From NCBI GenBank assembly GCA_964501435.1, contig CAZCTH010000005.1, positions 22,507-86,506 on the forward strand: a DNA stretch of 64,000 nt. Reading direction: 5' to 3'. This document shows positions 7,526 to 36,975 of this stretch, one piece after another (position 1 is the stretch's first letter; each line of letters opens with the position of its first letter). Source of the stretch: an uncultured Spirochaetales bacterium (GTDB lineage Bacteria > Myxococcota_A > UBA9160 > UBA6930). The position numbers and the translations under genes were made by a program. The notes under the pieces are model-generated. The model was not told the DNA's origin and made no database searches. It saw nothing but the letters and a program-made list of their open reading frames with translations.

Positions 7526-7602
7526 CGCTCGCCCTCCTTGCTCGTGACTACGAGTGACGCCCCCTCGAGGTGACAAATCGCCGTTCCAGAGGGCGCGCAC
7601 GC

Positions 7603-8082: not shown

Positions 8083-8164
8083 CGGTGTACGTCCTTTCGC
8101 AGCGCGAACGCCCTCGACTCGGCGGTGCCGGGCGCCGCAACTCGGTGTCGGACGGAGGGGCGCT

Positions 8165-12330: not shown

Positions 12331-12441
12331 GCGTGCGCCTCCTATCCTCGCTCGACTACGGACGCGCGCGGGTAGCGGTGACAAGAGATCGACTCTGGGC
12401 TGGCCGGTCGCGGGCGGGCGCCCTCGAACTACAGTTCCGGC

Positions 12442-13773: not shown

Positions 13774-13855
13774 CCCGCGCGGACTCATCTGCGGCCCCCA
13801 TGTCCGGGTCACTTCTCGCGCGGTCCCCCGTATCTAGCCGGCGGGGGCCACACTT

Positions 13856-14513: not shown

Positions 14514-15611
14514 TCACGTCTCCGCAAAGTGGAGCGCTGGCCTTCCAGCGCAGGCAGCGGGATCGTGCTCGAAGCGATCGCGACAATTGAGTGAGCAGAA
14601 GTAGAACGTCGCCTCCTCGTGCACCGATTGCGCGCGCGCACGCTCGGGGTTGATGACCATCCCGCAAACGGGATCGAAGTGGAGACTGAGTGCGCGGTCG
14701 GCCTGCGCGCGGTGCGCTGGCGGAGACTTCATCAGCTTCTCGATCGTCGGAAGCGCTGCCTCGGTCGCGCGTCGCCCAGCCGCGACGGCTTCGCTCACGC
14801 GATGGAAGTCGCGCAGGCCGATGTCCCCTAGCTCCGGGGCGATGAGCAGCTCCGGCCCGATCATGGCCTCCGCCAGCGCCGTCTGATGGTCGAGGACGAT
14901 CTCGGCGGCTCGGGCGAGTAGTTCCAACGCGATCTTCGCGGTCGCTGGGTTCGGGACGAAGCCGCCGAGCCTCGAAAACCACGGCGTGACGCGCCAATTG
15001 AGCTGCGGCATTCGCCGATCTCGCGCTGCTCCAACCTTGACGGCGACGACGACGTCGGGATCTGCGATCGCGGCTACGTCGACTGGAATCAAGTTGAGGA
15101 GCGCGCCGTCAACGAGCCAACGCGTGCCAACTTTCACAGGCGGCAGCACGCCGGGCACTGCGCAGGTCGCCTCGACGGCGGGCCGCAAGGCGCCGGCGTG
15201 GATCACGACTTGCGTCCCCGCCTCGAGGTCGACAGCAGTCACAGCGAGAGGGGTCTTCAGTTCGGCAAAGGTCGCAGGGAGGGCATTCGCGGCAGCGCCG
15301 AAGATTGACGACCAAGAGACCAAGCCACCCGGGATGAACCAGCGCGGGAAGCGGAAGTCTTTGGCGAGGTCGGCGATCTCACGGGCATCGAGACCTGCCG
15401 CACTGAGGGCGCCGATCAACCCTCCCATACTGCTGCCGGCAAGGAAGTCCACCCGGATGCCTTCGCGCTCGAGCACGTCAAGCACTCCGACGTGGGCGAG
15501 GCCCCGGGCTCCTCCGCCGCCAAGGGCAAGCGCGAGGCGAGCGCGGGTTCGCGTCTCCGCACCTCCCTCTCGCCCAGCTCCGACGGAAATGAGTCTCGCG
15601 CGCGGCGTCAT
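14514..15611 (-). CDS. patatin-like phospholipase fused to a C-terminal YHS/TRASH metal-binding domain
   Basis: Patatin motifs LALGGGGARGLAHVGV (oxyanion Gly-rich loop) and AGSSMGGLIG (GxSxG). The C-terminus HFDPVCGMVINPE...ATFYFCSLNCRDRFEHDP is a YHS-type motif. Confidence 0.85.
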   Translation of the reverse strand: MTPRARLISVGAGREGGAETRTRARLALALGGGGARGLAHVGVLDVLEREGIRVDFLAGSSMGGLIGALSAAGLDAREIADLAKDFRFPRWFIPGGLVSWSSIFGAAANALPATFAELKTPLAVTAVDLEAGTQVVIHAGALRPAVEATCAVPGVLPPVKVGTRWLVDGALLNLIPVDVAAIADPDVVVAVKVGAARDRRMPQLNWRVTPWFSRLGGFVPNPATAKIALELLARAAEIVLDHQTALAEAMIGPELLIAPELGDIGLRDFHRVSEAVAAGRRATEAALPTIEKLMKSPPAHRAQADRALSLHFDPVCGMVINPERARAQSVHEEATFYFCSLNCRDRFEHDPAACAGRPALHFAET

Positions 15612-17797: not shown

Positions 17798-17813
17798 CGA
17801 AGTTCTCCTGGTG

Positions 17814-20975: not shown

Positions 20976-20978
20976 GGT

Positions 20979-23395: not shown

Positions 23396-23479
23396 GACAC
23401 CTCCAAGCGATCCACGCTCAATCGAGAGCGCAGGATGAGCTTTGGCAACGGCGCCAAAGCAGATCGCGAGGCGTCTAGC

Positions 23480-23869
23480 TCAGAGTCGAAGAACGTCCCT
23501 TCGCAGTGGGATCACCGGCGGTGCGCGGTCGTGGCGCACTTCGATCGCTCGCTCGACAGCCGCACTGCGGGCGGCAGCGTCCCAGGGGATCAGCAGCACG
23601 AGATCCGAGTTCCCGATGCTCAGATCAACCGACGGCCCACTCTTCGGGACGCCCTGCATCAGCTGCTGGCAGTGATCGACGCAGCTCTCCTCCTGGCCGG
23701 AACCGCCACCAGGAGAATCGTGCGAGTCGCCGTGCCCATGACCAGCAGCGGGTGCTTGCTCGTGATGAGCTGAAGATCGCGCATGCTCATCCGCGAGCGC
23801 GCACATCGGCAGATGCGCCGACCAGATCGCGATCATGAGTGCTGCGAGCGTTTTCAAGTTGAACGGCAT
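23480..23869 (-). CDS. small His-rich exported protein, first gene of the RND operon
   Basis: 129 aa with a signal/TM (LKTLAALMIAIWSAHLPMCALA), a His run (HHEQAPAAGHGHGDSHD) and a CVDHC motif. The RBS is weak. Confidence 0.5.
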   Translation of the reverse strand: MPFNLKTLAALMIAIWSAHLPMCALADEHARSSAHHEQAPAAGHGHGDSHDSPGGGSGQEESCVDHCQQLMQGVPKSGPSVDLSIGNSDLVLLIPWDAAARSAAVERAIEVRHDRAPPVIPLRRDVLRL

Positions 23870-23897
23870 CCTATCCGTCGAGCCTTAGAACACCAAA

Positions 23898-23916
23898 TGG
23901 CCATCCGCAAGGCGGT
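23898..23916. promoter_or_regulatory. perfect 7-bp inverted repeat CAAGGCG-N5-CGCCTTG in the leader of the RND operon
   Basis: The sequence reads caaggcggtggacgccttg, about 30-50 nt upstream of ATG 23869 of the His-rich first gene. It could be an operator or an RNA hairpin. Confidence 0.2.
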
Positions 23917-24090
23917 GGACGCCTTGGGATGTCCATCGACCTAGCGGACTCCCACCTTGATCCGCGTTCTTGGGAGGGGCAGCCGCGCGAATTGCTTAGG
24001 ATTGTCTCAAGGGTCGCGCGCGCCGTCCGTGCCCTGGAGAGAAGGCGGCCGACTCCGAACTGGGGCCGGATCACACCCTCCAACGGCGGC

Positions 24091-24453
24091 TCAGCGCTTC
24101 GCCTCGGCTTCGTGATCCGCTGCGAGCTTCTCGTATTCTTGGGCTACGCCCTCGAACTGCTTCGCCAGAGCGTCGCAGTGCGCCTTCATCTTCTGCCGCT
24201 CGAAGAGCTTCCCACCAGCGTAGTTCTTTCCCATCGAGCGGTGGCTTGCGGCAGTCGCCCGCGCCTCGGCGGCCTTCCCGCGATAATGCTCGGCGAGGGC
24301 CTTGTGCTCGGCGGGAGTGCTCGCGAACTCGACCAGCAGGGCCTCGATCGACGAATCCCTGCTGCCGTGGCCCGCGTGCGCTCCCTCTTGGGCGATGGCC
24401 GCACCACCCAGCACACAGAGTCCGAAGATTGCTGCGATTCCAAGCGTTCTCAC
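24091..24453 (-). CDS. secreted helical protein, paralogue C (C-terminal module only)
   Basis: GTG 24453 is preceded by AAGGAG at a 7-nt spacing. It has a signal peptide (VRTLGIAAIFGLCVLGGAAIA). Module: STPAEHKALAEHYRGKAAEARATAASHRSMGKNY..HCDALAKQFEGVAQEYEKLAADHEAEA. Confidence 0.6.
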   Translation of the reverse strand: MRTLGIAAIFGLCVLGGAAIAQEGAHAGHGSRDSSIEALLVEFASTPAEHKALAEHYRGKAAEARATAASHRSMGKNYAGGKLFERQKMKAHCDALAKQFEGVAQEYEKLAADHEAEAKR

Positions 24454-24548
24454 GAGTCTTCTCCTTGCGGTTGTTTTGGGAATGGCGGGGCGCAACGCGG
24501 CGCGGCCGAGGATGGGTCAAAGCAATCGGCGTGCCTGAGTCCTTCTGA

Positions 24549-24565
24549 GCGGATCTGTGCGGATC
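24549..24565. promoter_or_regulatory. tandem direct repeat GCGGATC-tgt-GCGGATC (10-bp period), candidate regulator-binding site
   Basis: Perfect 7-mer repeated with helical phasing, about 100 nt upstream of GTG 24453, in the 225-nt gap between glgP and paralogue C. Confidence 0.2.
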
Positions 24566-24678
24566 CTCGTCGGTTTTCGGGTGTGTCGAGATCGAGTGTT
24601 GCTCGCGGGGGAGGCAAAATCTGAGAAGCGTGCCCAGTTCGGAGGCATGCAGGGAGGGCGTCGGGGCACCGGGGAGGC

Positions 24679-26538
24679 CTAGAGGTAGGCGCTCGCCGCG
24701 TACTGCTGGACCATACGATGGGTGTTGAAAAAGGACGCGTTCAAGGCGATCGCCTGCCGCATCACATCGATCCAGCCGGAGCGATTCCCGTAGTACAGCG
24801 GGACGATCACCTGCTCGAGCTTCGCGTAGAGGTCGCTGGCGTCGCGAGCATCGATTTCGGCACCTGCGGCACTGGCGGCATCGTCCGTGCCGATCGACCA
24901 GCCTGTGACGCCTTCGATGTGCCCCTCGATCCACCAGCCGTCCAAGACGCTGAGGCTCGGGACGCCGTTGTGCGCCGCCTTCATCCCGGAAGTGCCCGAG
25001 GCTTCCAGCGGCCGAGCGGGCGTGTTGAGCCAAAGGTCTACTCCGGCCGTGAGGCAGCGAGCGAGTTCGACGTCGTAGTTTTCCAGGTAGACGACTCGAA
25101 CCGATCCGGCGAGCTCTCGGGCAACGCGAAACACCCCGCGAATCAGGTCTTTGCCCGTCGCGTCGCGCGGATGTGCCTTGCCCGCCAAGACCAGCTGGAT
25201 GGGGCCCGCGAGCCGGGCGATGGAGCGAAGGCGATCGACGTCGCGAAAGAGAAGCTGCATCCGCTTGTACTCGGTTGCGCGGCGCGCGAACCCGATTGTT
25301 AGGGAGTCGCCCGCGAGATCGACGCCGGTTCTCGATCGCACCCGATCGATCAAGGCCGCCTTCGCCTCGAGGTGGGCGCTCCAGATCTCTAAGCGCGGAA
25401 TTCGGAGCGCATTGCGCAGCAGATAGGAATCCGACATCCACCCGGGCAGGTGTCGATCGTAAACGCGCGCGAAGCTCTCCGCGGTCCAGGTGACGGAGTG
25501 CACACCGTTAGTAACCGCATCGAACGTGTGTCCGGGAAAGAGGCTGCGAGATACCTCCCCGTGCTTCTTGGCGACGCCGTTGGTGTACTGGCTCAGATTC
25601 ATCGCGAGCAGCGTCAGGTTGAAGCGGCCTGCACCGCCGAACATCTCGAGCTGGTCCCTCGGCAACGGCGTCTCGAGAAGCTCTGCCAGGAGCTCATAGG
25701 CGAACTGGTCGTGACCTGCGGGAACCGGTGTGTGCGTTGTGAACACGCATTGGCTCCGCACACTGGCATAGGCTTCGTCATCTCCCGAAACCTTTTTCTC
25801 CCCGCGAAGGAGCTCGAGCGTGAGCAACGCCGCATGCCCTTCGTTCATGTGAAAACGCTCGACGTGCGCGTACCCGAGTTCGCGAAGCATGCGGAGGCCG
25901 CCGATCCCGAGCACGATCTCTTGGGCAAGCCGGTAGCGCTCGTCGCCCCCGTAGAGATGCGCCGTAAGGGACCTGTCTTCTGGCGTGTTGCTTGGGCAAT
26001 CCGTGTCGAGCAGGAGCAGCGGGACGACGTAGCCGGTCGCACCGCGAATCTCGTACTGCCAAGCGCGCACTTCGACGGCGCGTGAGGCGATGCGCACTTC
26101 GACTCTGGCCTCGGCGCAACGAGCGAACTGGGCCGGATCCCAGGCCACCTCGTGCTCGCTCTGGTTCCCGTCGGCGTCGAGCCGCTGCTCGAAGTAGCCC
26201 TTGCGGTGCACGAGCGACACACCGACGACGGGGATTCGGAGATCCGCGCAGGATCGCAGTGCATCGGCCGCGAGGACCCCGAGGCCCCCACTGTACGTGG
26301 GCATCCTCGGGTGGACTGCTGCCTCCATCGTGAAGTAGGCGATGCGACGGCGCGCAGGATCGATGCGCGCTCCCTCGTCGCGGGTGAGGGCGCCGTAACG
26401 TTCCGGCTGGAAGAGGAACTTCTGGAGGCAGAGCTTCGAGCAGAACGCGACCGCCCTCCCCTCCCGCAGCAGCGTCAGGCTCTCCTTCGGCTCGACCTCC
26501 ATGCCGCAGACCGGATCTCTCATGCAGCGCACTCCCAT
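24679..26538 (-). CDS. glgP: alpha-glucan (maltodextrin/glycogen) phosphorylase, GT35, with an N-terminal YHS/TRASH domain
   Basis: N-terminus (MGVRC)MRDPVCGMEVEPKESLTLLREGRAVAFCSKLCLQKF, then IAYFTMEAAVHPRMPTYSGGLGVLAAD and EASGTSGMKAAHNG (PLP Lys region). The start is ATG 26538 or 26523; the latter has a GGGAG RBS. Confidence 0.88.
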   Translation of the reverse strand: MGVRCMRDPVCGMEVEPKESLTLLREGRAVAFCSKLCLQKFLFQPERYGALTRDEGARIDPARRRIAYFTMEAAVHPRMPTYSGGLGVLAADALRSCADLRIPVVGVSLVHRKGYFEQRLDADGNQSEHEVAWDPAQFARCAEARVEVRIASRAVEVRAWQYEIRGATGYVVPLLLLDTDCPSNTPEDRSLTAHLYGGDERYRLAQEIVLGIGGLRMLRELGYAHVERFHMNEGHAALLTLELLRGEKKVSGDDEAYASVRSQCVFTTHTPVPAGHDQFAYELLAELLETPLPRDQLEMFGGAGRFNLTLLAMNLSQYTNGVAKKHGEVSRSLFPGHTFDAVTNGVHSVTWTAESFARVYDRHLPGWMSDSYLLRNALRIPRLEIWSAHLEAKAALIDRVRSRTGVDLAGDSLTIGFARRATEYKRMQLLFRDVDRLRSIARLAGPIQLVLAGKAHPRDATGKDLIRGVFRVARELAGSVRVVYLENYDVELARCLTAGVDLWLNTPARPLEASGTSGMKAAHNGVPSLSVLDGWWIEGHIEGVTGWSIGTDDAASAAGAEIDARDASDLYAKLEQVIVPLYYGNRSGWIDVMRQAIALNASFFNTHRMVQQYAASAYL

Positions 26539-26543
26539 CGACC

Positions 26544-27233
26544 CTAGTGATGGGCGCGTGGAACCAGGTGTCCGCGAGCAAGGTCCTGCAGCCTCGGCAC
26601 CTCTGTCGCGTCGGACACTGTTAGGTCGACATCCCGCGAGTCCCCGACGCGCTCGATGCGCACACCGGGGAGATAGAGGGGGCAATGGTCGATTCGTGGC
26701 GCGCGAGCGCGCGCGAATGCCAGGTGACAGCGCATGTGCGCCATCGCTGCGTTCGTGTCGATGCCCGTGTCGAGGCGGACCCGGGCCCCGTCGAGGAGAG
26801 GCTCGACGGCTTCGACGTGTCCCGCGAAGGGGCATGCGGTTCGTGTCTCGGGCGGGAACGAAACGCAGGCGTCCTCCTCGAAAGCCTCGAGTTCGCGCGC
26901 TGCGGCGAGATGCTGCCTTGCGTGTTGCTCATGCTCGCCAGCGTGCTCGCGATGACGTTCGGTTGGGTTGTACTGGCCGGCGGGCCAGTAGAAGTCGCCG
27001 CTCGGAAAGCGCGATCGGGTCGATCGGAAGGGTTCGTAGCTGGGAAGGCTCGCCTCCGGGTCGTACTTCTCTCGGTGCTCGAGCGCCTCCCGAGCGTGCA
27101 ACTCTGATTCGCTGCGATGTGCCCCAGCATCCATCCCGGTGTGGCGCTCCGCGACGGTGCCACTGCACCCCGCCGCGAGGAGCGCAGCGGCCGCGAGTGA
27201 GATCGCGTGAAGTCTCGAGCCTCGCGGCCGCAT
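26544..27233 (-). CDS. lipoprotein, function unknown (His/Glu-rich)
   Basis: Starts at MRPRGSRLHAISLAAAALLAAGCSG (lipobox). It contains several Cys and an HREHAGEHEQHARQH stretch. Its stop lies 5 nt upstream of the glgP ATG. Confidence 0.55.
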   Translation of the reverse strand: MRPRGSRLHAISLAAAALLAAGCSGTVAERHTGMDAGAHRSESELHAREALEHREKYDPEASLPSYEPFRSTRSRFPSGDFYWPAGQYNPTERHREHAGEHEQHARQHLAAARELEAFEEDACVSFPPETRTACPFAGHVEAVEPLLDGARVRLDTGIDTNAAMAHMRCHLAFARARAPRIDHCPLYLPGVRIERVGDSRDVDLTVSDATEVPRLQDLARGHLVPRAHH

Positions 27234-27409
27234 CCAGCGCACCTCCCTGCGACGAGGTACGCCGGCGCCCGGGCTGCGGTGACATCTCGCGCCGCTAACC
27301 GAGAACGTTTCCGTGCAGCCTCCAGGGCGCCGACCTGTCACGTCTTGCCTTCGTACCGCGTATTCGAGATTGCGCCGCACACGCCCCGCGCGCGCCGCCA
27401 GGGCCCCCC

Positions 27410-29806
27410 ATGTCACGCGCTACTTCGCGTTTTGTCGTTCCGTTTCGAGATCTCACGATCGATGACGTCTCGCTTGTCGGAGGGAAGAACGCATCCCTCG
27501 GAGAAATGATTCGCAACCTCGGTGCTGCCGGCGTCCCGGTGCCCGATGGCTTCGCGGTCACAGCCGAGGCGTTTCGCGTTCACCTCGCCGGGGCCGGAAT
27601 CGAGAGCGCGGTCTACTCGGCCCTCGACAAGCTCGACGTCCGCGACGTGGCAGCCCTCGAGCTCGTGGGCCGACACGTTCGCGATCTCGTCGCGCAGGCT
27701 CCACTCCCCGCCGCGGTCTGGGGCGAGGTCGAGGCAGCCTACGGGCGTCTCTCGCAAGAGAACGGGGAGAGCCCCGAGGTCGCAGTGCGCTCGAGCGCCA
27801 CTGCCGAGGATCTGCCCAACGCGTCGTTCGCGGGGCAGCAAGAGACGTATCTTTACGTGCACGGTCGCGCGGCACTTCGGCAAACAATCGTCTCGTGCAT
27901 GGCCTCGCTCTTCACGGACCGAGCGATCGTGTACCGCGCGGAGCGCGGCTTTGCGCACCGCGACGTAGCGCTCTCCGTCGGCGTGCAGCAGATGGTTCGG
28001 AGCCTGTGCGCCGGAGTGGTCTTCACGCTCGACCCGGAGAGTGGGTTTCGCGACGTCGTGCTCGTCTCGGGCGCGTGGGGCCTCGGCGAGACCGTCGTTC
28101 AAGGGAGCGTGAACCCCGACGAGTTCTGGGTTCACAAACCGACACTCCGTCAGGGCTTCCAGCCGATCATCCGGCGTGAGCGAGGCGAGAAGGCGATCCG
28201 GATGGTTCGCGCCTCCGGAAGCGGTGGCCGGGCGACTCGCACGGAGGCGGTTCCGGAGCCGGACCGCCAACGGTTCGTGCTCTCGGACGCAGAAGTGCTC
28301 CAGCTCGCGCGCTGGGCACTCGCGATCGAGAGCCACTACTCGGCGCGCCACGGGCGCGACGTGCCGATGGACATCGAGTGGGCGAAGGACGAGCGCACGG
28401 GTGCCCTCGCCATCGTGCAGGCGCGGCCGGAGACGGTTCACTCACAGAAGACGGCTCCTGCAATCGAGTTCTTTCGGCTGCGCCAAGAAGGGACGGTCCT
28501 CGTCCGAGGCAAGAGCGTCGGCGCCGCAATCGCGACGGGCCCTGTGCGTGTGCTCCGCGACCTCAGCGAGCGGGCGAGCTTCTGCCGCGGCGAGGTGCTC
28601 GTAACCACCGAGACAGGGCCCGATTGGGAGCCGATCCTTCACGATGCCGTTGCCGTGGTGACGGACAAAGGCGGGCGCACGTGTCACGCGGCGATCGTTT
28701 CGCGCGAGCTCGGCATCCCTTGTGTGGTGGGTGCGGAGCGCGCGACGTCACAGTTGCGCGACGGCCAGCCTGTTACGGTTTCTTGCGCGGAAGGTGACGA
28801 GGGGCGTGTCTACGCGGGAACCCTCGAGTTCGACTGCGAGAGAATCGACCCCGGAAAGCTGCCAGTGCCGCGCGTCCCGCTGCTCCTCAACGTCGGCAGT
28901 CCGGCGCGCGCCTTTCAGCTCGCACAGCTTCCGAGCCAGGGCGTTGGGCTCGCTCGCATGGAGCTGATCGTGCTGAATGCCATCGGGGTCCATCCGATGG
29001 CACTCGTCCACCCCGAGCGCGTTGGCGACCCCAAAGTCGCTGCGGAGATTCAGCGGCGTACGCGCCGCTTCGCGTCAGGTCCCGATTTCTTCGTGAGCGA
29101 GCTCGCGATGGGCGTCGCCGGCATTGCCGCCGCGTTCTTCCCCCGCCCTGTGATCCTTCGCTTCTCCGATTTCAAGACGAACGAATACCGCGCACTTCTC
29201 GGTGGCTGCGAGTTCGAGCCGGAGGAAGCGAACCCGATGATCGGGTTCCGCGGCGCATCCCGGTACTACTCCGACCGCTACCGCGAAGGATTCGCGCTCG
29301 AGTGCGCTGCCGTGCGACGGGTTCGCGACGAAATGGGGCTCGTCAACCTCCACGTGATGATTCCGTTCTGCAGGACGCTCGGGGAGGCGCGCAAGGCGCT
29401 GCTCGAGCTCGAGAAGAATGGGCTCGTGCGCGGGCAGAGGTCGCTCGAGGTCTACGTCATGTGCGAGATCCCGAGCAACGCGCTCCTTGCCGAGGAGTTC
29501 GCCGACCTCTTCGACGGCTTCTCGATCGGATCGAACGACCTGACGCAGCTCACGCTCGGCGTCGACCGCGACTCGGCGCTTCTCGCGGATCTCTTCGACG
29601 AACGGGATCCCGCGGTGAGAAAGCTCATCGAGATGGTCGTTCGGGCAGCCCATCGCAAGGGCCGCAAAGTCGGGATCTGCGGCCAGGCGCCCAGCGATTA
29701 TCCAGACTTCGCCGAGTTTCTCTCGGAGATCGGGATCGACTGCATTTCCTTGAATGCCGATGCCTTCGCGACCGTCGCCCGGAGGCTTGGCGCGACGCCG
29801 CCATGA
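27410..29806 (+). CDS. ppsA: phosphoenolpyruvate synthase (pyruvate, water dikinase)
   Basis: 798 aa. N-terminus VGGKNASLGEMI, phospho-His region TDKGGRTCHAAIVSRELGIP, and a C-terminal PEP-utilising domain. Confidence 0.93.
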   Translation: MSRATSRFVVPFRDLTIDDVSLVGGKNASLGEMIRNLGAAGVPVPDGFAVTAEAFRVHLAGAGIESAVYSALDKLDVRDVAALELVGRHVRDLVAQAPLPAAVWGEVEAAYGRLSQENGESPEVAVRSSATAEDLPNASFAGQQETYLYVHGRAALRQTIVSCMASLFTDRAIVYRAERGFAHRDVALSVGVQQMVRSLCAGVVFTLDPESGFRDVVLVSGAWGLGETVVQGSVNPDEFWVHKPTLRQGFQPIIRRERGEKAIRMVRASGSGGRATRTEAVPEPDRQRFVLSDAEVLQLARWALAIESHYSARHGRDVPMDIEWAKDERTGALAIVQARPETVHSQKTAPAIEFFRLRQEGTVLVRGKSVGAAIATGPVRVLRDLSERASFCRGEVLVTTETGPDWEPILHDAVAVVTDKGGRTCHAAIVSRELGIPCVVGAERATSQLRDGQPVTVSCAEGDEGRVYAGTLEFDCERIDPGKLPVPRVPLLLNVGSPARAFQLAQLPSQGVGLARMELIVLNAIGVHPMALVHPERVGDPKVAAEIQRRTRRFASGPDFFVSELAMGVAGIAAAFFPRPVILRFSDFKTNEYRALLGGCEFEPEEANPMIGFRGASRYYSDRYREGFALECAAVRRVRDEMGLVNLHVMIPFCRTLGEARKALLELEKNGLVRGQRSLEVYVMCEIPSNALLAEEFADLFDGFSIGSNDLTQLTLGVDRDSALLADLFDERDPAVRKLIEMVVRAAHRKGRKVGICGQAPSDYPDFAEFLSEIGIDCISLNADAFATVARRLGATPP

Positions 29807-30993
29807 AGATTCTCATGCTCGGATGGGAGCTCCCGCCGCGCTTCGCGGGCGGTGTTGGAGTCGTCACGCACGCCCTCTTGCGCGCGCTCGCAAGGCGCGG
29901 TCACCAGCTCGTATACGCGATGCCGGCATTCGCCGGGGATGCGGCGCTCGAGGGTGTCCGCATCCTCGCGCCCGCAGAAACAGAGCCGCCGAGCCGTCTG
30001 ACGTCGTACGCAAGCGCGCACCCGCGTATAGCGATTCCTGGCGAGATCGTTCCGCCAAGCGGCGCGCCGCTCTATGGCGCGGACTTGCTCAAGGAAATCG
30101 ACCGCTTCGCCGCTGACGTCGTCGCCCGCGTGCGCAGCGCGGGCGTCGAGTTTGATCTCGTCCACGCGCAGGACTGGACGACCTTCCGCGCAGGACTCGC
30201 GCTCCGCCGGGCATTCGGCAAGCCCTGGGTCGCCCACGTGCACATTACCGAGTTCGACAAGTCGGGTGGCTCGCACGCGGACCCAAGCGTCTACGCAGCC
30301 GAGCGCGAGGGGATTTGCGGTGCGGACCTCGTCGTCGCCGTGAGCCAGCGTATCGCCGCGACGTGCCGCGATCTCTACGGCGCCCAGCCTGAGCGTGTAC
30401 GCGTCGTCTACAACGGCATCGACTTCGACACAACCTCGCCCATCCCGCCGGCGTTGCCGCGCCCGCTCGTGCTCTTCCTCGGCCGAGTCACCTTGCAGAA
30501 GGGACCGGAGTATTTCCTCGAGGCGGCGCGTCGCGTGCTCGAGCTCGAGCCTGAGACGCACTTCGTCCTCGCTGGCACCGGCGACATGCTGCCGCGCATG
30601 ATCGAGCGCGCGGCGGAGTTGGGCATCGCCTCGCACGTGTCATTCCCGGGCTTCGTGGATCGCGAGCGGGCGGCCGCTCTCTACGCCGGGGCCGACGTCT
30701 TCGCAATGCCGAGCGTCTCGGAGCCTTTTGGAATCGTCCCGCTCGAGGCGATGGACCGGGGCGTGCCCGTCATCGTCTCCCGCCAGTCGGGCGTCTCGGA
30801 GGTGCTCCGCAACGCCCTCAAGGTCGACTTCTGGGACATCGACGACCTCGCCTCGAAGATCGTCGCAGCGCTCCGGATGCCCGCGCTCGCCGATGAGCTG
30901 CGTCGCAATGCGTTGACTGAGGTCGGGTCGATGAGCTGGGATGCCGTCGCGGAGCGCCTCGAACGCCTCTACGAGGAGCTGCTCCGTGCCTAG
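29803..30993 (+). CDS. GT4/GT5-type glycosyltransferase, probable archaeal-type glycogen synthase
   Basis: Starts at MKILMLGWELPPRFAGGVGVV (ATGA overlap with the ppsA stop). C-terminal SEPFGIVPLEAMDRGVPVIVS is the E-x7-E-type motif. Confidence 0.8.
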   Translation: MKILMLGWELPPRFAGGVGVVTHALLRALARRGHQLVYAMPAFAGDAALEGVRILAPAETEPPSRLTSYASAHPRIAIPGEIVPPSGAPLYGADLLKEIDRFAADVVARVRSAGVEFDLVHAQDWTTFRAGLALRRAFGKPWVAHVHITEFDKSGGSHADPSVYAAEREGICGADLVVAVSQRIAATCRDLYGAQPERVRVVYNGIDFDTTSPIPPALPRPLVLFLGRVTLQKGPEYFLEAARRVLELEPETHFVLAGTGDMLPRMIERAAELGIASHVSFPGFVDRERAAALYAGADVFAMPSVSEPFGIVPLEAMDRGVPVIVSRQSGVSEVLRNALKVDFWDIDDLASKIVAALRMPALADELRRNALTEVGSMSWDAVAERLERLYEELLRA

Positions 30994-32233
30994 CGTGTGC
31001 CTCTATTTCCAAGTGCACCAGCCCTATCGGCTGCGGCGCTACGGCGCGTTCGACGTGGGGAGCCGCCACGATTATTTCGACGCGGACCTCGACGAGACCA
31101 TCCTGCGAAAGGTCGCCGAAAAGTGTTACCGCCCGATGAACGCGCTCGTAGAGGAGCTCGTCGAGCGCACGAACGGCCGCTTCCGCGCGGCGTACTCGAT
31201 AAGTGGGACGGCGCTCGAGCAAATCGAGCGCTGGGCGCCCGACCTGATCGAGAGCTTTCGCCGCCTCGTTGCCACGGGCGCAATCGAGCTGCTGGCCGAG
31301 ACCTACTACCACTCGCTTGCGTGCGTGGCGTCTCGCGACGAGTTCGCCGAACAGGTCGCGCTCCACTCGGCGAAGGTCGAGAGCCTCTTCGGCGTGCGGC
31401 CGCGTGTGTTCCGCAACACCGAGCTGATCTTCTCGAACGAGGTCGCACGTCTGGTTGCCGAGCTTGGATTCGCCGGTGTCCTCGCCGAGGGTGCCGACCG
31501 CGTGCTCGGTTGGCGCTCCCCGCATTTTCTGTACGCGGCGACAGGCACGCCCAATCTGCCCGTCTTGCTGAAGAGCTACCGACTCTCTGACGACATCGCC
31601 TTCCGGTTCGGCAATCGCGGCTGGGAGGGGTGGCCGCTGACCGCCGAGAAGTTCGCCGGCTGGCTCCATGCGGTGAACGGATGCGGGGAGACCGTGAACC
31701 TCTTCATGGACTACGAGACCTTTGGTGAGCACCAGTGGGCTGACACGGGGATCTTCGAGTTCATGCGCAGCCTACCTCGGGCGGTCCTGGCGCATCCGGA
31801 CATGGAGTTCGCGACGCCGTCGGAGGTGACGAGGCGCTACGGGCCGCGCTCCGAGATCGATGTGCACGACTTCGTTTCGTGGGCCGACACCGAGCGCGAT
31901 CTCACGGCCTGGCTCGGAAACGCCATGCAGCGCGAGGCGATGCGTTCCCTCTTCGCCCTCCGCGGCGCTGTGCACGCCGCAGGCGACCCGGAGATGCTCG
32001 AGACCTGGCGTCGCCTCACGACGAGCGACCACCTCTACTACATGTGCACCAAGTGGTTTTCGGACGGCGACGTCCACAAGTACTTCTCGCCCTACGAATC
32101 TCCTTACGAGGCGCACATCGCCTTCATGAACGCGCTCGCCGACCTGTCGCTGTGCGTGCGCCGCGCGGCCGGGCGGCCGGCTCACTTGCGATCGCCGACT
32201 ACGTCACTCGGAGGCGACTTCGCACGTAGATGA
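30986..32233 (+). CDS. glycoside hydrolase family 57 (alpha-amylase-like)
   Basis: GH57 regions LYFQVHQPYR, NTELIFSNE (nucleophile Glu) and MDYETFGEH (acid/base Asp). The GTG start overlaps the upstream stop. Confidence 0.8.
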   Translation: MPSVCLYFQVHQPYRLRRYGAFDVGSRHDYFDADLDETILRKVAEKCYRPMNALVEELVERTNGRFRAAYSISGTALEQIERWAPDLIESFRRLVATGAIELLAETYYHSLACVASRDEFAEQVALHSAKVESLFGVRPRVFRNTELIFSNEVARLVAELGFAGVLAEGADRVLGWRSPHFLYAATGTPNLPVLLKSYRLSDDIAFRFGNRGWEGWPLTAEKFAGWLHAVNGCGETVNLFMDYETFGEHQWADTGIFEFMRSLPRAVLAHPDMEFATPSEVTRRYGPRSEIDVHDFVSWADTERDLTAWLGNAMQREAMRSLFALRGAVHAAGDPEMLETWRRLTTSDHLYYMCTKWFSDGDVHKYFSPYESPYEAHIAFMNALADLSLCVRRAAGRPAHLRSPTTSLGGDFARR

Positions 32234-32372
32234 GGGCTAGAGGGAGAGGCTACTGGGGCGAGGAGGCAGAGCATTGCTGACCGATCGCGGCCTCTCGCGC
32301 GGGCCGCGGCTTCCGACCCGTGCGCGGGAAGGTCGCCTGTTCGCTCGGCGCGAGAGCGTGAGGGAGAAGAGC

Positions 32373-33542
32373 GTGAGGCAAAGGCGCTTCGGCATTCTGA
32401 CGGGCGGCGGCGACGTACCGGGGCTCAACGTCGCGATCAAAGCCGTCGTCCAGCGGGCCTCCGCACAGGGCACGGCAGTGGTCGGACTGCGGCGCGGCTG
32501 GCTGAGCCTGCTTGCGATCGACCCGGATGCTCCGGCCACAATCGCGGATTGGACGGTCGAGCTCACGAGCGATCGCGTCCGGGCGATCGACCGCACCGGC
32601 GGTACGATCCTTCACACCTCCCGCACGAATCCGGGCAACATGAAGGCGAGCGAACTGCCCGCGCACGTCCGCAAGGAGGACCGAGGCGCGCTCACGAGAG
32701 ACGGCAGCGTCGACTGTACGCGGCACGTCCTACGCGTACTCGGCGCGCTCGATCTCGACGGTCTCATCGCGATCGGCGGGGACGACACGCTGAGCTACGC
32801 GCACCGTCTTCACCGTGAAGGGGTTCCCGTCGTCGCGATTCCAAAGACGATGGACAACGACGTGAGCGGCACCGACTACTGCATCGGATTTTCCACCGCT
32901 GTCACCCGCTCGGTCGAGGCGATCACGGCCTTTCGCACGAACGTCGGCTCTCACGAGCGGATCGGCGTCGTCGAACTGTTCGGACGCAACTCGGGCGAGA
33001 CCTCGCTCTTCGTCGCCCTTCTCGCCGACGCCGACCGTGCCGTCATCCCGGAGGTGCCCTTCGACCCCAAGCGCTTGTGCGACTTTCTCGCTGACGATCG
33101 GAAACGGAACCCATCGCACTACGCCATCCTCACGATCTCGGAGGGCGCCCAGCTCGAGGGAGGCGCGATCCTCGAGTCCGGCGAAGCCGATGCCTATGGC
33201 CACAAGAAGCTCGGCGGAATTGGCGCCCTCGTCGCGGCGGAGATCAAGCAGCGCACGAAGGTCAACATCATGGTTCAGCAGCTCGCCTACATGATGCGAG
33301 CTGGCGCACCCGACTCGCTCGACCGAATGGTCGCGCTCTCGTTCGGGGGCCTCGCCTTCGATCAACTCGCCGCCGGCCAGGTGGGACGCATGGTCGCTCT
33401 GCAACGGGGTGTCTACACGACTGCCGCGCTCGAGTCGGTGGTCGCGGGGCAGAAGCGCGTCGACACGGCCGCGCTCTACGACACGGAAAGCTATCGGCCG
33501 AAGCTGCGCGAGCTGGTCGGAAAGCCCATGTTCCTTTACTAG
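32373..33542 (+). CDS. pfp: 6-phosphofructokinase with the PPi-dependent signature
   Basis: FGILTGGGDVPGLN, IGGDDTLSYA (Asp rather than Gly) and IPKTMDNDV (Lys rather than Gly). GTG 32373 is preceded by GAGGGAG. The track ORF starts at 32274. Confidence 0.85.
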   Translation: MRQRRFGILTGGGDVPGLNVAIKAVVQRASAQGTAVVGLRRGWLSLLAIDPDAPATIADWTVELTSDRVRAIDRTGGTILHTSRTNPGNMKASELPAHVRKEDRGALTRDGSVDCTRHVLRVLGALDLDGLIAIGGDDTLSYAHRLHREGVPVVAIPKTMDNDVSGTDYCIGFSTAVTRSVEAITAFRTNVGSHERIGVVELFGRNSGETSLFVALLADADRAVIPEVPFDPKRLCDFLADDRKRNPSHYAILTISEGAQLEGGAILESGEADAYGHKKLGGIGALVAAEIKQRTKVNIMVQQLAYMMRAGAPDSLDRMVALSFGGLAFDQLAAGQVGRMVALQRGVYTTAALESVVAGQKRVDTAALYDTESYRPKLRELVGKPMFLY

Positions 33543-33579
33543 GTCTCCCCCTCGGAACGACTCGCAGAGTCAAGCGTGA

Positions 33580-35856
33580 TCAGGGGCGGATGTCGATGCG
33601 CTGGACACCCGCGCGGCAACAGGGGCCCGGCGAGTCGCAGGCCTCGTGGCTGCAGTGGAATTCGAACGAGACGACGCGAGCACCGACTTCGACTGGCTCA
33701 ACGCGGACACCGAAGCGGTAGACGCCGAGGAGCGCCCCCCCGTCGCGGCTGACGGTGGCCTCGTTCGCGGACGCCGACACGTCGGTGCGCCACGTCAGCT
33801 GGCCGGGGCAGTGCATTCGAACCACGAGCGGCTGTCCACGTCGAATCGCCTTCACCGGCTGCGCGAACGTCCAGATCGCCGGGTGCGGCACGATTGGCTG
33901 CGTCAGCTCATTAGGGATCTCAGCACCGATGAAGCGGTAAACGTTCGACAGATGCAGTCGAAACAAGTCATCGAACTCGGCGTCGGACGACGAATCCTGA
34001 TCGGTGCCGAACCACCAGAACCAGTCGCTGCCCTCGGCGTAGTACGCCGCCTCGAGGGCGCGCTGCCGCTCAGCTGACCCGACGTTCGCGGCATCGATCC
34101 GGTCTCGCGCTGCCGCGAGGAGCTCCCATGCGCGATTCTCCTCCGGCTCCCCGATCCAAGTGCCGAAGTCCGTCCCCGGCGGCGAGCCCTGCTCATCGAT
34201 CCAGCTGCCCGCGGCGAGCGGCTGAATGAGCGGCAACGACGGTACAGGATGCGCGAGAACACCCCGGGCCGGATCGCCGTTGAGGTACTCCGAGAACGTC
34301 ACCGTCTTGATCTCTGGATCCGTGGCCAGTGCCGTGTAGAGCGCCCGTAGAAAGGGGCGGCCTTGACCGGGGAAGGAGCTCCACGCGTTTTCGCCGTCGA
34401 GTGCAACGGTAACGACGCGCTGCGAGGGATCCGCGACGCGCCACGCGAAACGCTCCTTGAGCTCGCGGACGAACTCGCGCGCTCCCGACTCGGCACTTCT
34501 GTCCCCCCCTGACTGGAACCCGATGCGATTGGAGAGCGAGGTGTCGCGGAAGAACACTGCGACGCCTCGGCCGTGCTCGTCCTCGGCGCGATAGGGCTGC
34601 GCGAGGACGTTTGGGTCCTCGACTGGCAGGCTCGCTCCGCCAGAGCGGCGGAGGATGTCGCGATCGGTTGCGATCCACTCGACGCCGTGACCTGCGAAGA
34701 GGCCGACGATGCCTTGGGAAACTGCGCCCTCCGACGGCCACATCCCCCGCGGAGATCTTCCGAACCAACGGCGATACGACTCGACCGCGCGACCCACCTG
34801 CAGGCCTGCATCTTCCGGGCGCCGAAAGCGCGGCACGGCTCCGTTCTCGGGGCCCGCAATCTCTGTATCCATGAGGAGCGGGAGGATCGGGTGCGCGTGT
34901 GGCGACGTTGAGATCTCGATCTGCCCGCGTTCCTGCAGCTCGCGGTGGATCGCGACTACGGCTCGGAGCACCTTGCGTTGCTCCTCGACCATCGCGCCGA
35001 GATCCGCCTGAGAAAAGCCTGCGCCCTTTCCAACGAATCGCTCGACGCTCGCCGTCGAGCCGCCGGGGAGCGCGACCGTCCCTTCCTGAAACTCAGGAGC
35101 GAACCAGGCGAGGTTGAACCACATCTGAAGATCGCGCAGGTCAGCGGCCGAGAATCGAACGCCGCGGCGCCGCTGGTCCAAGAGCTCGCGATAGCGCGGA
35201 AACGGATAGATCTGGCGATGCCAGTCGGCGTCGAAGAAGCTGCTGAGAACCGCCTCGCGCTGGGCGCGGCTGAGTCGGCCGGCGGGCACGAGCGTTAGCT
35301 CGAGTGCTTGGTCGGTCGCACCTCGCTCCGCGTAGTCCTCGATCTGAGCGAGAAGGACGGGGGTGAGGTTGATCGTGGCGTGCACGCGCGGATGATCGGC
35401 GAGGATCGCCGCCATCGCGTAGTAGTCGCGCAAGCCGTGCAGGCGTACCCAAGGGAGCGCGTAGGCGCCCCGGAGACTCTCCTTCCCGAGGTCGCGGTAG
35501 AGCGGCTGGTGCTGGTGCCACAAGAGCGCCAAGTGAATCTTGGGCCCGACCAGGAACTCGAAGGGACCCAGCCGAATCGATCCAGAGGGACCCGTGGCGA
35601 CAAATTCGTAAGCGATCCGCTCACCCTCACGGAAGGCGCCAAGGTCGACGTACCAGAAGCTCGAGTCCTGTTCATTGCGCTCCCACTGCGCGTACAGGCG
35701 ACGCGACGGCTCGTCGGAGCCGATCCGGCGCACGTCCAGCGCCACCTGCTGACCCAGCTCGACGGGCCGGCTTGCGATCCTCAGATTGACGTTCTCGCCG
35801 GCGCTCGGATGGGCCGGGAAGCGCCCGGCCTCAGGTGTTAGATGCCAGAGCTCCAT
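33580..35856 (-). CDS. large GH57-family glycoside hydrolase (branching enzyme / amylopullulanase-like) with an N-terminal Ig/CBM-like domain
   Basis: LLWHQHQPLYRD, GQIEISTSPHAHPILPLL, MWPSEGAVS and ALDGENAW are the GH57 conserved regions. There are extra ~95-aa N-terminal and ~130-aa C-terminal domains. Confidence 0.8.
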   Translation of the reverse strand: MELWHLTPEAGRFPAHPSAGENVNLRIASRPVELGQQVALDVRRIGSDEPSRRLYAQWERNEQDSSFWYVDLGAFREGERIAYEFVATGPSGSIRLGPFEFLVGPKIHLALLWHQHQPLYRDLGKESLRGAYALPWVRLHGLRDYYAMAAILADHPRVHATINLTPVLLAQIEDYAERGATDQALELTLVPAGRLSRAQREAVLSSFFDADWHRQIYPFPRYRELLDQRRRGVRFSAADLRDLQMWFNLAWFAPEFQEGTVALPGGSTASVERFVGKGAGFSQADLGAMVEEQRKVLRAVVAIHRELQERGQIEISTSPHAHPILPLLMDTEIAGPENGAVPRFRRPEDAGLQVGRAVESYRRWFGRSPRGMWPSEGAVSQGIVGLFAGHGVEWIATDRDILRRSGGASLPVEDPNVLAQPYRAEDEHGRGVAVFFRDTSLSNRIGFQSGGDRSAESGAREFVRELKERFAWRVADPSQRVVTVALDGENAWSSFPGQGRPFLRALYTALATDPEIKTVTFSEYLNGDPARGVLAHPVPSLPLIQPLAAGSWIDEQGSPPGTDFGTWIGEPEENRAWELLAAARDRIDAANVGSAERQRALEAAYYAEGSDWFWWFGTDQDSSSDAEFDDLFRLHLSNVYRFIGAEIPNELTQPIVPHPAIWTFAQPVKAIRRGQPLVVRMHCPGQLTWRTDVSASANEATVSRDGGALLGVYRFGVRVEPVEVGARVVSFEFHCSHEACDSPGPCCRAGVQRIDIRP

Positions 35857-35859
35857 CCC

Positions 35860-36966
35860 TCATCCTCCGGTCGCCTGCGCGACGCGCCTCGCGATCTCGG
35901 CCTCCTCGTTGGTCGGCACCACGTAGACGGGAGTCGCACCTCGCGTGGAGATCCGTCCCGCGGTGCCGCCCTCGTTGGCCAAGGCGTCGAGCGCCATCCC
36001 CCAGGCCGCTAGGCCCGCGACAATCCGGGCCCGGATGAGGGGTGCGTTCTCACCGATCCCGCCGCCGAAAACCAGCGGACGCGGCCCTCCGAGGAGAGTG
36101 AGGTAGGCGCCGACTGTCAGCACGATGCGATGGACGAAGAGATCGAGCGCACGAGTTGCGCGCCCTTCGCCCCGCTCGACCTCCACGAGAAGGGCACGCA
36201 CGTCAGCGGTGCCCGCCATTCCGAGAATCCCTGCGTGTTGGCGGAGCCCGATCTCGAGCTCGTCGAGACCCACTCCCGATCGCAGAAGGTGAATCAGGAC
36301 GCCGGGGTCGACATCACCCGAGCGCGTTCCCATGACGAGCCCCTCGAGGGGCGTGAACCCCATCGACGTCTCGACCGACTTGCCACGCGAAACCGCACAG
36401 GCCGAGCAGCCGCTGCCGAGCTGGAGCGTGACGGCATCGACCTCGTGTAGCGGCGTGCCTTGCTGCTGCCCGAGGCCGGCGACCAAGGACGCGTGCGCCA
36501 GTCCGTGGAATCCGTAGCGGTGGAGTCCGAAGCGCCGCGTCCAGGCGGGAGGAAGCGCGTAGTCGAGCGATGCACCCGACCGGACAGCGTGAAACTCTGT
36601 GTCGAACGCTGCGACCTGAGGCAACGGCGCGAACACGCTGCGCGCGCAGCGGACGATGCGAAGCGCGACGGGTTGGTGCAGAGGAGCCAGTCCTGCGAGC
36701 CCAGCGAGCTCGGCTTCGATGGAGGCATCGAGAGTTGTCGCATCAACAAATCGCCGGCCACCGTGAACGATGCGATGCCCAACCGCCGAGACCGATCCGA
36801 CCGCGGATCCGAGCCCGTTCAGGACCGCCGAGAATGCCTCCTCGGTTGACTCGAGGGCGCGCAGCGGCACCGACGCGCGCGACAACTCGTGAAGCGCGTC
36901 TCGCTCGCTCTCAAACACCGCTCCCTTGAGCGTCGCTGTGCCCGCATTCAGAACCAGAATCCGCAC
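35860..36966 (-). CDS. ackA: acetate kinase
   Basis: MRILVLNAGTATLKG, HRIVHGG, YGFHGLAH and GGGIGEN motifs. Confidence 0.88.
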   Translation of the reverse strand: MRILVLNAGTATLKGAVFESERDALHELSRASVPLRALESTEEAFSAVLNGLGSAVGSVSAVGHRIVHGGRRFVDATTLDASIEAELAGLAGLAPLHQPVALRIVRCARSVFAPLPQVAAFDTEFHAVRSGASLDYALPPAWTRRFGLHRYGFHGLAHASLVAGLGQQQGTPLHEVDAVTLQLGSGCSACAVSRGKSVETSMGFTPLEGLVMGTRSGDVDPGVLIHLLRSGVGLDELEIGLRQHAGILGMAGTADVRALLVEVERGEGRATRALDLFVHRIVLTVGAYLTLLGGPRPLVFGGGIGENAPLIRARIVAGLAAWGMALDALANEGGTAGRISTRGATPVYVVPTNEEAEIARRVAQATGG

Positions 36967-36975
36967 CGCCAGCCC

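Follow-up and report, generated by a model that had tools for sequence, protein, structure and literature searches.

A predicted family of alpha-glucan phosphorylases with an N-terminal YHS module and its association with metal-resistance gene islands

We identified a putative YHS-alpha-glucan phosphorylase, that is, a predicted glycogen-degrading enzyme with a YHS (TRASH) module at its N-terminus, in a stretch of 64,000 nucleotides of contig CAZCTH010000005.1 from an uncultured Spirochaetales bacterium. This whole stretch is referred to below as the window, and positions are counted from its first letter. By every sequence criterion tested, the protein belongs to both the GT35/TIGR02094 phosphorylases and the YHS family. 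Comparison with relatives indicates that the fusion represents a conserved family rather than a one-off, and that the clade of YHS-phosphorylases is conserved, horizontally mobile and carried in copper and heavy-metal resistance islands. Within two sets of related loci, genes for metal transport and metal oxidation are found much more often next to phosphorylases that carry the YHS module (14 of 18 loci) than next to relatives that lack it (6 of 78 loci), and the module may act as a metal-responsive regulatory module on the enzyme.

The phosphorylase core and its YHS module

The original prediction had placed a YHS-type module of about 45 residues in front of a GT35 phosphorylase core, and the three peptides quoted in it match the minus-strand open reading frame (ORF) ending at 24679 exactly. 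Both parts of the protein were recovered in profile searches. The core matches TIGR02094 ('alpha-glucan family phosphorylase', NCBIfam) with 560.6 bits against a cut-off of 191.7, over profile positions 1-598 of 600, and the Pfam family Phosphorylase (PF00343) with 107 bits against 27. It contains the motif EASGTSGMK, in which Lys515 is the pyridoxal-phosphate Schiff-base lysine of GT35 enzymes. The gene is predicted to encode a catalytically intact short-type alpha-glucan (glycogen/maltodextrin) phosphorylase. The closest solved structure to the core is the glycogen phosphorylase of Segatella copri (9l6i/20yr, 34-36% identity), which shares the TIGR02094-type core but is 852 amino acids long, the match beginning at about residue 106 after a longer and unrelated N-terminal region.

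The N-terminal module matches Pfam YHS (PF04945) with E = 3.5e-8 and 33.8 bits against a cut-off of 30.3, covering residues 7-48 of the 619-aa form of the protein (residues 2-43 of the 614-aa form; see below) and profile positions 2-43 of 47. Its putative ligands are arranged as D3-x2-C6-x21-C28-x3-C32, which fits the family pattern (D/C)-x2-C-x19-22-C-x3-C, and D3, P4, V5, C6, M8, C28, S29, C32, F36 and P40 are invariant among 56 aligned homologues (59-71% identity). The linker between the module and the core has no consensus residue across these homologues. In an AlphaFold2 model based on the 56-sequence alignment (mean predicted local distance difference test score, pLDDT, 79) the YHS module scores about 80, and residues 45-53 of the linker score below 50. 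Modelled in isolation, residues 1-48 reach a pLDDT of 85.5 and form a knuckle, two strands (16-20 and 23-27) and a helix (30-38). The best fold matches of the isolated module are L24e and the YHS modules of toluene/o-xylene monooxygenase (ToMO) and phenol hydroxylase, with Foldseek probabilities of 0.9-0.99 (L24e/ToMO), TM-scores of 0.53-0.70 and E-values that are weak, as expected for a query of 48 residues. Its sequence-profile matches are likewise hydroxylases of phenol, toluene and o-xylene monooxygenases and L24e, the best being 2inp (E = 3.4e-5). From the alignment and the models we infer a metal-binding Asp-Cys3 site on a flexible tether of about 15 residues.

Two candidate ATG codons, at 26538 and 26523, were found in the frame of the gene, and the original prediction had named both as possible starts. 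The frame is open beyond 26538 owing only to the GC-rich character of the region, and the TAG stop of the preceding gene (26544-26546) lies 20 nt ahead of the phosphorylase start. The ATG at 26523, giving a protein that begins with MRDPVCGM, is more likely to be the start than the one at 26538, because it has a Shine-Dalgarno-like GGGAG 8 nt upstream, because the 614-aa product has an identical twin in the database and because a relative with 71% identity likewise begins with MRDPVCGM.

A start still further downstream, at Met8 (26500-26502) or later, would leave the YHS module outside the protein, and a start beyond the CGM motif had been put forward as a way in which the original prediction could fail. 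Some database entries are indeed gene-called in this manner, namely P0002 and P0008 at Met8 and P0099 from a start that also omits DPVCG. Such an annotation artefact is effectively ruled out by the conservation of the motif at the DNA level. Across 16 loci of distant phyla, different synonymous codons are used for D-P-V-C-G (GAT/GAC; CCG/CCC/CCA/CCT; GTC/GTA/GTG/GTT; TGC/TGT; GGC/GGG/GGA) and the residues barely change, which indicates that the module is translated. An ATG is present a few codons 5' of DPVCG in 13 of the 16 loci, in several of them after a purine-rich Shine-Dalgarno-like stretch, and is missing from this place in L013, L033 and L064. The Pfam match to YHS also needs the DPVCG residues.

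Distribution of the fusion and its metal-gene neighbourhoods

In a census of domain architectures, which the original prediction had proposed as a check, PF04945 was found together with PF00343 in 117 of the 120 best database relatives (59-79% identity, 603-641 aa). At least two of the three exceptions (P0002 and P0008) are the entries called from the internal Met8, and P0099 is the third. The source names among these relatives include Candidatus Binatia, NC10/Methylomirabilis oxyfera, Planctomycetes and Nitrospirales. Hundreds of proteins with this architecture are already present in the databases, where their annotation does not go beyond 'alpha-glucan family phosphorylase' or glgP, and no paper on the YHS/TRASH-phosphorylase architecture or its tie to metal islands was found in full-text literature searches. 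When residues 1-100 were used as the query against 1.8 billion cluster representatives, about 28-30 clusters (50% identity) were obtained that span the junction between YHS and core, a rough count that consists mostly of metagenomic fragments. Many of the cluster representatives contain three to five tandem YHS repeats (e.g., P0243, P0262, and P0279), some in proteins of about 1000 aa.

A translated search of plasmids identified full-length copies with 57-58% identity in four cyanobacteria (Chroococcidiopsis CCNUC1, Stanieria PCC 7437, Leptolyngbya boryana NIES-2135, and Aulosira laxa NIES-50), and three of these four plasmids were typed as conjugative. Among the matches listed in a scan of species-representative genomes, YHS-bearing forms were present in Ignavibacteriales, Brocadiaceae, a deltaproteobacterium (with CH in place of CG) and two Bathyarchaeia. 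In the Bathyarchaeial versions (L064 9971-11785; L033 4981-6810) the linker is almost absent and the sites differ: the motif of L064 contains four Cys (CPVCG...CFCSENC), and in L033 Asp takes the place of the second Cys (YYFDSEYC). YHS-less relatives with 49-57% identity to the window protein are widespread and have no N-terminal domain at all. In a rough neighbour-joining tree of 93 cores, calculated without support values, the YHS-bearing sequences occupy four positions. One main clade mixes sequences from Binatia, Planctomycetes, cyanobacterial plasmids, Nitrospirales and NC10-like bacteria, a composition that fits horizontal transfer. The three other YHS lineages each fall within groups of YHS-less sequences, which suggests that the module was gained or lost more than once.

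To compare gene neighbourhoods, metal-related markers within 10 kb of the phosphorylase gene were counted in 18 loci with the YHS module and in 78 control loci, the latter being YHS-less relatives (49-57% identity) among the matches listed in the species-representative genome scan and three plasmid loci. The markers were CusA/CzcA-type resistance-nodulation-division (RND) pumps, P1B ATPases, multicopper oxidase/CopB, and DUF2933 with ICMT; a strict set was limited to heavy-metal-efflux RND pumps, P1B ATPases, multicopper oxidases and CopB. At least one marker of the composite set was found in 14/18 YHS-bearing loci and in 6/78 controls (p = 3.7e-9), and of the strict set in 10/18 and 5/78 (p = 7e-6). 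The difference in the strict set persisted when all P1B-like ATPases were counted in the controls (10/18 vs 9/78, p = 1.6e-4) and when, in addition, the window itself was left out (9/17 vs 9/78, p = 4e-4). Considered one by one, heavy-metal-type RND pumps (4/18 vs 0/78, p = 9e-4), copper-type P1B ATPases (5/18 vs 4/78, p = 0.011), DUF2933 (6/18 vs 2/78, p = 4e-4) and ICMT (8/18 vs 2/78, p = 1.2e-5) were all more frequent near YHS-bearing genes. The association between glycogen breakdown and metal that the original prediction had proposed is thereby borne out at the level of gene neighbourhoods. The presence of any RND pump nearby was also considered as a signal and was rejected (4/14 vs 9/74, p = 0.12), as only the heavy-metal subtype discriminates: all seven control RND pumps tested are Mdt-type multidrug pumps, whereas both RND pumps of the window pass the CusA/CzcA cut-off.

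The individual loci differ in their metal genes. The Binatia locus, read from precomputed Pfam labels, contains an OEP-CusB(HMBD)-RND system and three further YHS proteins, and an NC10-like locus has an RND gene about 9 kb from the YHS-phosphorylase. On a contig of 1.38 Mb, multicopper oxidase, CopB and Fur genes are located upstream and DUF2933, ICMT, GH57 and a small YHS protein downstream. In L007/L008 a YHS-HMBD-P1B ATPase gene is followed after 66 nt by the YHS-phosphorylase gene and this, after 117 nt, by multicopper oxidase and CopB genes. Another YHS-phosphorylase locus has P-type ATPase, OEP, CusB and RND genes, and two loci read by their Pfam labels showed no clear metal genes. The cyanobacterial plasmid loci encode heavy-metal P-type ATPases, multicopper oxidases, DUF2933 with ICMT, DUF5676 and universal stress proteins (Usp), and also a four-helix-bundle copper-binding protein, MerR, phytochelatin synthase and DmeF. 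DUF2933 and ICMT are documented companions of MerR-CopA-cupredoxin operons (PMC8478169). On the conjugative plasmid of Stanieria the genes for HMA, P1B ATPase, DUF5676, Usp, multicopper oxidase, DUF2933 and ICMT form, with others, a run on one strand together with a methyltransferase gene that overlaps glgP. Outside the main clade, the YHS-phosphorylase of the deltaproteobacterial lineage L013 directly follows the gene for an HMA-HMA-P1B ATPase, and that of the archaeal lineage L033 is located beside ICMT and a P-type ATPase.

When neighbouring proteins were clustered without preselection, the most enriched was a small secreted helical protein, found in 7/14 YHS-bearing loci and 0/74 controls (p = 5e-7). 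Members of this family are about 105-190 aa long and secreted or lipoprotein-like, have no Pfam match, often occur as two to four paralogues per locus and follow the pattern ...LA.YY..QA...R.KA...HC..IA..Y..AA.EAEALA..HR... They were found in the window (24091-24453, minus strand) and in L003, L005, L007, L009, L091 and L092. A class I S-adenosylmethionine-dependent (UbiE/type 11) methyltransferase gene is located directly 5' of the YHS-phosphorylase gene in L094 (14286-16854), L095 (14303-16848), L090, L092 and L096. Its overlap with the glgP start, of 8 nt in Stanieria and 4 nt in Leptolyngbya, suggests translational coupling. L048 (~10001-14349, from a Gallionella metagenome-assembled genome), a candidate YHS fusion, was rejected as such: it consists of a YHS-less phosphorylase gene followed on the same strand by a gene for a YHS-bearing P1B ATPase. 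A link between phosphorylase and copper pump is thus, judging from gene order, present without fusion as well.

Gene content of the window

The coordinates of the features discussed are given in Table 1. Two RND systems of the heavy-metal type, a multicopper oxidase and CopB are encoded in the window together with genes of glycogen and central-carbon metabolism, and this block of metal and carbon genes is flanked by conjugative type IV secretion genes. The window looks like the cargo of a conjugative element that joins metal resistance with glycogen and central-carbon metabolism, and probably belongs as a whole to an integrative conjugative element or a plasmid.

Table 1. Positions of the YHS-phosphorylase gene, its parts and other features in the window
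Feature	Position	Strand	Evidence or remark
YHS-alpha-glucan phosphorylase gene, 614 aa + stop	24679..26523	-	ORF, sequence, identical 614-aa database protein P0001
Alternative start of the YHS-phosphorylase	26538	-	Adds MGVRC, giving the 619-aa form
YHS/TRASH module, residues 2-43 (MRDPVCGMEVEPKESLTLLREGRAVAFCSKLCLQKFLFQPERY)	26395..26520	-	Pfam PF04945
Putative ligand Asp3	26515-26517	-	
Putative ligand Cys6	26506-26508	-	
Putative ligand Cys28	26440-26442	-	
Putative ligand Cys32	26428-26430	-	
Met8 of the YHS module	26500-26502	-	Also invariant
Linker, residues 44-58 (GALTRDEGARIDPAR)	26350..26394	-	Sequence and length differ between homologues
Short-type GT35 alpha-glucan phosphorylase core, residues 61-613	24685..26343	-	TIGR02094
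Codon of Lys515 in EASGTSGMK	24979..24981	-	Computed position; column invariant in 56 homologues
CopB	3595-4338	-	Pfam
Multicopper oxidase	4335-6278	-	Pfam
DUF2933 match	inside ORF 7268-8140	-	Pfam
Cytochrome b/cytochrome c fusion gene	9768-12071	-	
Patatin-like phospholipase with C-terminal YHS (DPVCGMVINPERARAQSVHEEATFYFCSLNC)	14514..15611	-	Pfam Patatin + YHS; motif 14583-14675
Cupredoxin-like protein	16790-17842	-	
CusA/CzcA-type RND pump (ACR_tran)	17814-20975	-	TIGR00914, 773 vs cut-off 701
Adaptor (HlyD_D23) of the first RND system	about 20979-22100	-	RND adaptor family above cut-off; CzcB/NccB model below cut-off
Outer-membrane factor (OEP) of the heavy-metal RND system	22076-23395	-	Pfam
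His-rich secreted protein, 129 aa, 9 His	23480..23869	-	
Small secreted helical protein, undescribed family	24091..24453	-	
His-rich lipoprotein, 229 aa, 17 His, 5 Cys, lipobox LAAGC, upstream of the phosphorylase	26544..27233	-	
Phosphoenolpyruvate (PEP) synthase	27410-29806	+	Pfam + NCBIfam
GT4/GT5 glycogen-synthase-like	29800-30993	+	Pfam + NCBIfam
GH57	30941-32233	+	Pfam + NCBIfam
Phosphofructokinase (PFK)	32274-33542	+	Pfam + NCBIfam
Large GH57	33580-35856	-	Pfam + NCBIfam
Acetate kinase	35860-36966	-	Pfam + NCBIfam
Phosphoketolase	36976-39330	-	Pfam + NCBIfam
P2-type cation ATPase	41204-43900	-	Best matches are Ca-type P-type ATPase models (below cut-offs), not heavy-metal
Second CusA/CzcA-type RND, pump	43908-47126	-	TIGR00914, 1054 vs 701
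Second RND, adaptor	47128-48282	-	
Second RND, outer-membrane factor	48279-49601	-	
UbiE-type methyltransferase	51336-52067		Distant from the phosphorylase in the window
VirB11-like	52537-53517	+	Pfam; conjugative type IV secretion
TrbE/VirB4	54229-56670	+	Pfam; conjugative type IV secretion
TrbL	57776-58843	+	Pfam; conjugative type IV secretion
TrbI	60566-61822	+	Pfam; conjugative type IV secretion

As the original prediction had stated, a metal pump is encoded on the same strand as the phosphorylase: its outer-membrane factor, adaptor and RND genes occupy 17814-23395, and its RND protein passes TIGR00914. The phosphorylase gene is separated from this system by two small genes, with gaps of 184, 222 and 85 nt. 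A scan of 23300-27700 for promoters and terminators found no promoter and two terminators, with 2.0 expected, and thus nothing above chance. No Pfam or NCBIfam family was found, even at E <= 1, for the lipoprotein upstream of the phosphorylase or for the proteins of 120 aa and 129 aa on its other side. The two His-rich exported proteins that flank the phosphorylase could be periplasmic metal-binding proteins.

The second YHS fusion that had been noticed nearby was also recovered. It is a patatin-like phospholipase with the YHS module at its C-terminus, and this fusion is kept as well (PF01734 and PF04945 in 119 of the 120 best relatives). The window thus holds two different YHS-tagged enzymes that degrade reserves or lipids. 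The cytochrome b/c fusion gene of the window has counterparts within 10 kb of the YHS-phosphorylases in the Nitrospirales-like loci L005, L091 and L092, where a Rieske protein is also present. The P2-type (Ca/Mg-like) ATPase gene directly adjoins the second RND system, and P2-type ATPases were found near YHS-phosphorylases in 5/18 loci and in 4/78 YHS-less loci.

Two statements on the carbon genes (27410..39330, assigned by Pfam and NCBIfam) had to be corrected. The block had been described as downstream of the phosphorylase, but it lies at higher coordinates, i.e., upstream of a minus-strand gene, and its strands are mixed. The pyrophosphate-dependent PFK named in the original prediction is not supported, as the PFK protein just passes the NCBIfam ATP-dependent model (256.3 vs 253) and is far below every cut-off for pyrophosphate-dependent enzymes. 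Glucokinase and glucose-6-phosphate dehydrogenase (G6PD) are also encoded in the window. Phosphoketolase and acetate kinase are located beside phosphorylases with the YHS module (window, L095) and without it (L042, L049, L073, L084), and were therefore rejected as YHS-specific partners. The association with phosphoketolase, usually together with acetate kinase, is, on the basis of these loci, a property of the family, and a glycogen-to-acetyl-phosphate module appears to travel with the short phosphorylases.

Proposed role of the YHS module and alternative explanations

We regard it as plausible, although somewhat short of probable, that the YHS module is a metal-responsive regulatory module on the phosphorylase. 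The module would bind a soft metal ion as cytoplasmic metal rises, most plausibly Cu(I) because of the neighbouring genes; the metal-loaded, folded module would then alter the activity or the oligomeric state of the phosphorylase, and the release of glucose-1-phosphate from stored glycogen would thereby be coupled to metal stress. In this scheme we infer the binding of metal, the identity of the metal, the direction of the regulation and the physiological purpose, namely fuel or reductant for efflux and repair. As to the purpose, we can only speculate that ATP would be gained via phosphoketolase and acetate kinase or NADPH via G6PD, or that glucose-1-phosphate would be used in another way.

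Several known systems can be compared with the YHS-phosphorylase. In eukaryotic glycogen phosphorylase the N-terminal extension is a regulatory input, with Ser14 phosphorylation and an AMP site. The likeness to the YHS-phosphorylase is one of concept only, an N-terminal extension of a GT35 enzyme as a possible regulatory input, since sequence and structure are unrelated and the signal there is phosphorylation or a nucleotide, whereas a metal ion is proposed here. P1B-type copper ATPases with N-terminal YHS/TRASH and HMBD domains share with the YHS-phosphorylases the motif DPVCGM...FCS..C, the N-terminal position of the module and, in L007, an operon, but are membrane pumps and not soluble enzymes of the glycosyltransferase fold. 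Copper binding by the YHS domain of these ATPases itself was without experimental proof as of PMC4626032. An experimental precedent is the class IIIc adenylyl cyclase of Mycobacterium phlei, which 1-10 uM Cu2+ switches on only when its YHS domain is present and for which Asp and three Cys are the proposed ligands (PMC4626032). As in the YHS-phosphorylase, a single YHS domain with a putative Asp-Cys3 site is joined to an enzyme by a short linker. In the cyclase, however, the domain is C-terminal, the linker has 8-11 residues and the output is a second messenger, whereas in the YHS-phosphorylase the module is N-terminal, the linker has about 15 residues and the enzyme is metabolic. Only about 26 sequences of YHS cyclases were known, and no genomic tie to resistance islands was reported for them (PMC4626032).

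Several observations weigh against a metal-responsive module. In toluene monooxygenase and phenol hydroxylase the YHS domain has a structural role, as has the TRASH fold in L24e, and the module of toluene-4-monooxygenase is without bound metal in crystals (PMC4626032). Copper stress does not generally call for more glycogen breakdown, as high copper represses the housekeeping glgP and glgX genes in Synechocystis (PMC4182526); this repression fits an accessory, metal-tuned copy of the enzyme and fits equally a cell that has no need for glycogen breakdown. Four of the 18 YHS-bearing loci (L010, L011, L064, and L090) have no metal marker. Since YHS-less relatives are also found in metal or stress islands (L037, L048, L049, L063, L069, L098, and L099), residence in such islands in part characterises the phosphorylase clade in general, and also mobile elements, which are rich in metal genes anyway. 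The neighbourhood statistics moreover treat loci that are phylogenetically non-independent, the main clade representing one fusion event and L005 and L092 being close relatives, and the detection seeds taken from YHS-bearing loci could favour detection there, which is partly controlled by the use of NCBIfam on the RND pumps.

The main rival to a metal switch is a structural zinc ribbon, which we consider rather unlikely. The module would permanently bind zinc, or nothing, and stabilise the N-terminus or mediate oligomerisation, and its presence in metal islands would result from hitch-hiking of a mobile gene. This would agree with the structural nature of the nearest solved relatives, L24e and the C-terminal modules of the phenol, toluene and o-xylene monooxygenase hydroxylases, with the Cys4 motif of the archaeal L064, which is typical of zinc ribbons, and with the YHS-less relatives in plasmid-borne metal and stress islands. 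The alpha subunits of phenol hydroxylase, toluene/o-xylene and toluene-4-monooxygenase and L24e, although they gave the best profile and fold matches, contain the module as an integrated structural element with no known regulatory role, unlike the flexible and unconserved attachment in the YHS-phosphorylase. The YHS-less relatives manage without any N-terminal domain, so that the core seems not to need one; the fusion is found at several positions in the tree; and, within one phosphorylase clade, it is specifically the YHS-bearing genes near which the markers are enriched. In the TRASH site of L24e a metal is bound at the four corresponding positions (PMC4626032), all of them Cys, and the Asp-Cys3 set of the YHS-phosphorylase equals that of the copper-switched cyclase.

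It is improbable, in our view, that the module is a metal-handling or docking tag, by which the YHS domains of the phosphorylase, the patatin-like lipase and stand-alone proteins would pass metal to and from the YHS-bearing P1B ATPases and other components of the island, or attach to them, acting as buffer, chaperone or scaffold, the last to place fuel-releasing enzymes at the pumps. Such a function would account for the stand-alone YHS proteins (58-93 aa) and other YHS fusions that recur in L003, L005/L092, Chroococcidiopsis and Indioceanicola, for the YHS-HMBD ATPase directly upstream in L007, for the common occurrence of tandem-repeat YHS proteins and for the conserved patatin fusion in the window. 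The RND-containing loci, including the window, nevertheless have no YHS ATPase within 10 kb, and the known copper chaperones of P1B ATPases are HMA (CopZ-type) proteins and not YHS proteins. We give still less credence to a thiol-redox switch, in which oxidative or thiol stress, including that caused by copper, would be sensed at the Cys3 site, whether or not zinc is bound there, and phosphorylase activity would be altered through metal release or oxidation. The three invariant cysteines and the presence of Usp, FtsH, an ECF (extracytoplasmic function) sigma factor with zf-HC2 anti-sigma factor, DsbB and thioredoxin in the islands would suit a redox switch, but the neighbours that are enriched encode metal transporters and oxidases, not functions for peroxide or disulfide stress, and no YHS or TRASH domain is known to work as a thiol-redox switch or zinc-thiolate sensor.

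A wider reading, which extends the metal-responsive module to the island as a whole and which we consider doubtful when all its parts are taken jointly, is that YHS-phosphorylases would be the first case of direct allosteric control of a glycogen phosphorylase by a transition metal and the trigger of a transferred 'metal-stress energy module'. Conjugative islands would then bundle metal pumps with a metal-gated fuel supply, in which glycogen would be converted to glucose-1-phosphate, with phosphoketolase and acetate kinase providing ATP and G6PD providing NADPH. The YHS-tagged patatin lipase would in the same way mobilise lipid, and YHS would be a 'metal-on' tag gained repeatedly in bacteria and archaea.

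The idea of a metal-responsive phosphorylase is directly testable, as a protein with 57-58% identity is present on plasmids of cultured cyanobacteria. Even if the module is a structural zinc site, the neighbourhood signal still marks a widespread accessory island with many small proteins that have no described family. Bacterial glycogen phosphorylases are generally regarded as being under the control of sugars, nucleotides or partner proteins. In view of the repeated presence of the YHS-phosphorylase gene in mobile metal-resistance islands, the breakdown of stored sugar may be coupled directly to metal stress. If this is true, a metal-sensing input would be a form of regulation new to this textbook enzyme family, and mobile metal-resistance islands would carry, besides pumps and oxidases, energy-supply functions that are tuned to the stress they counter.

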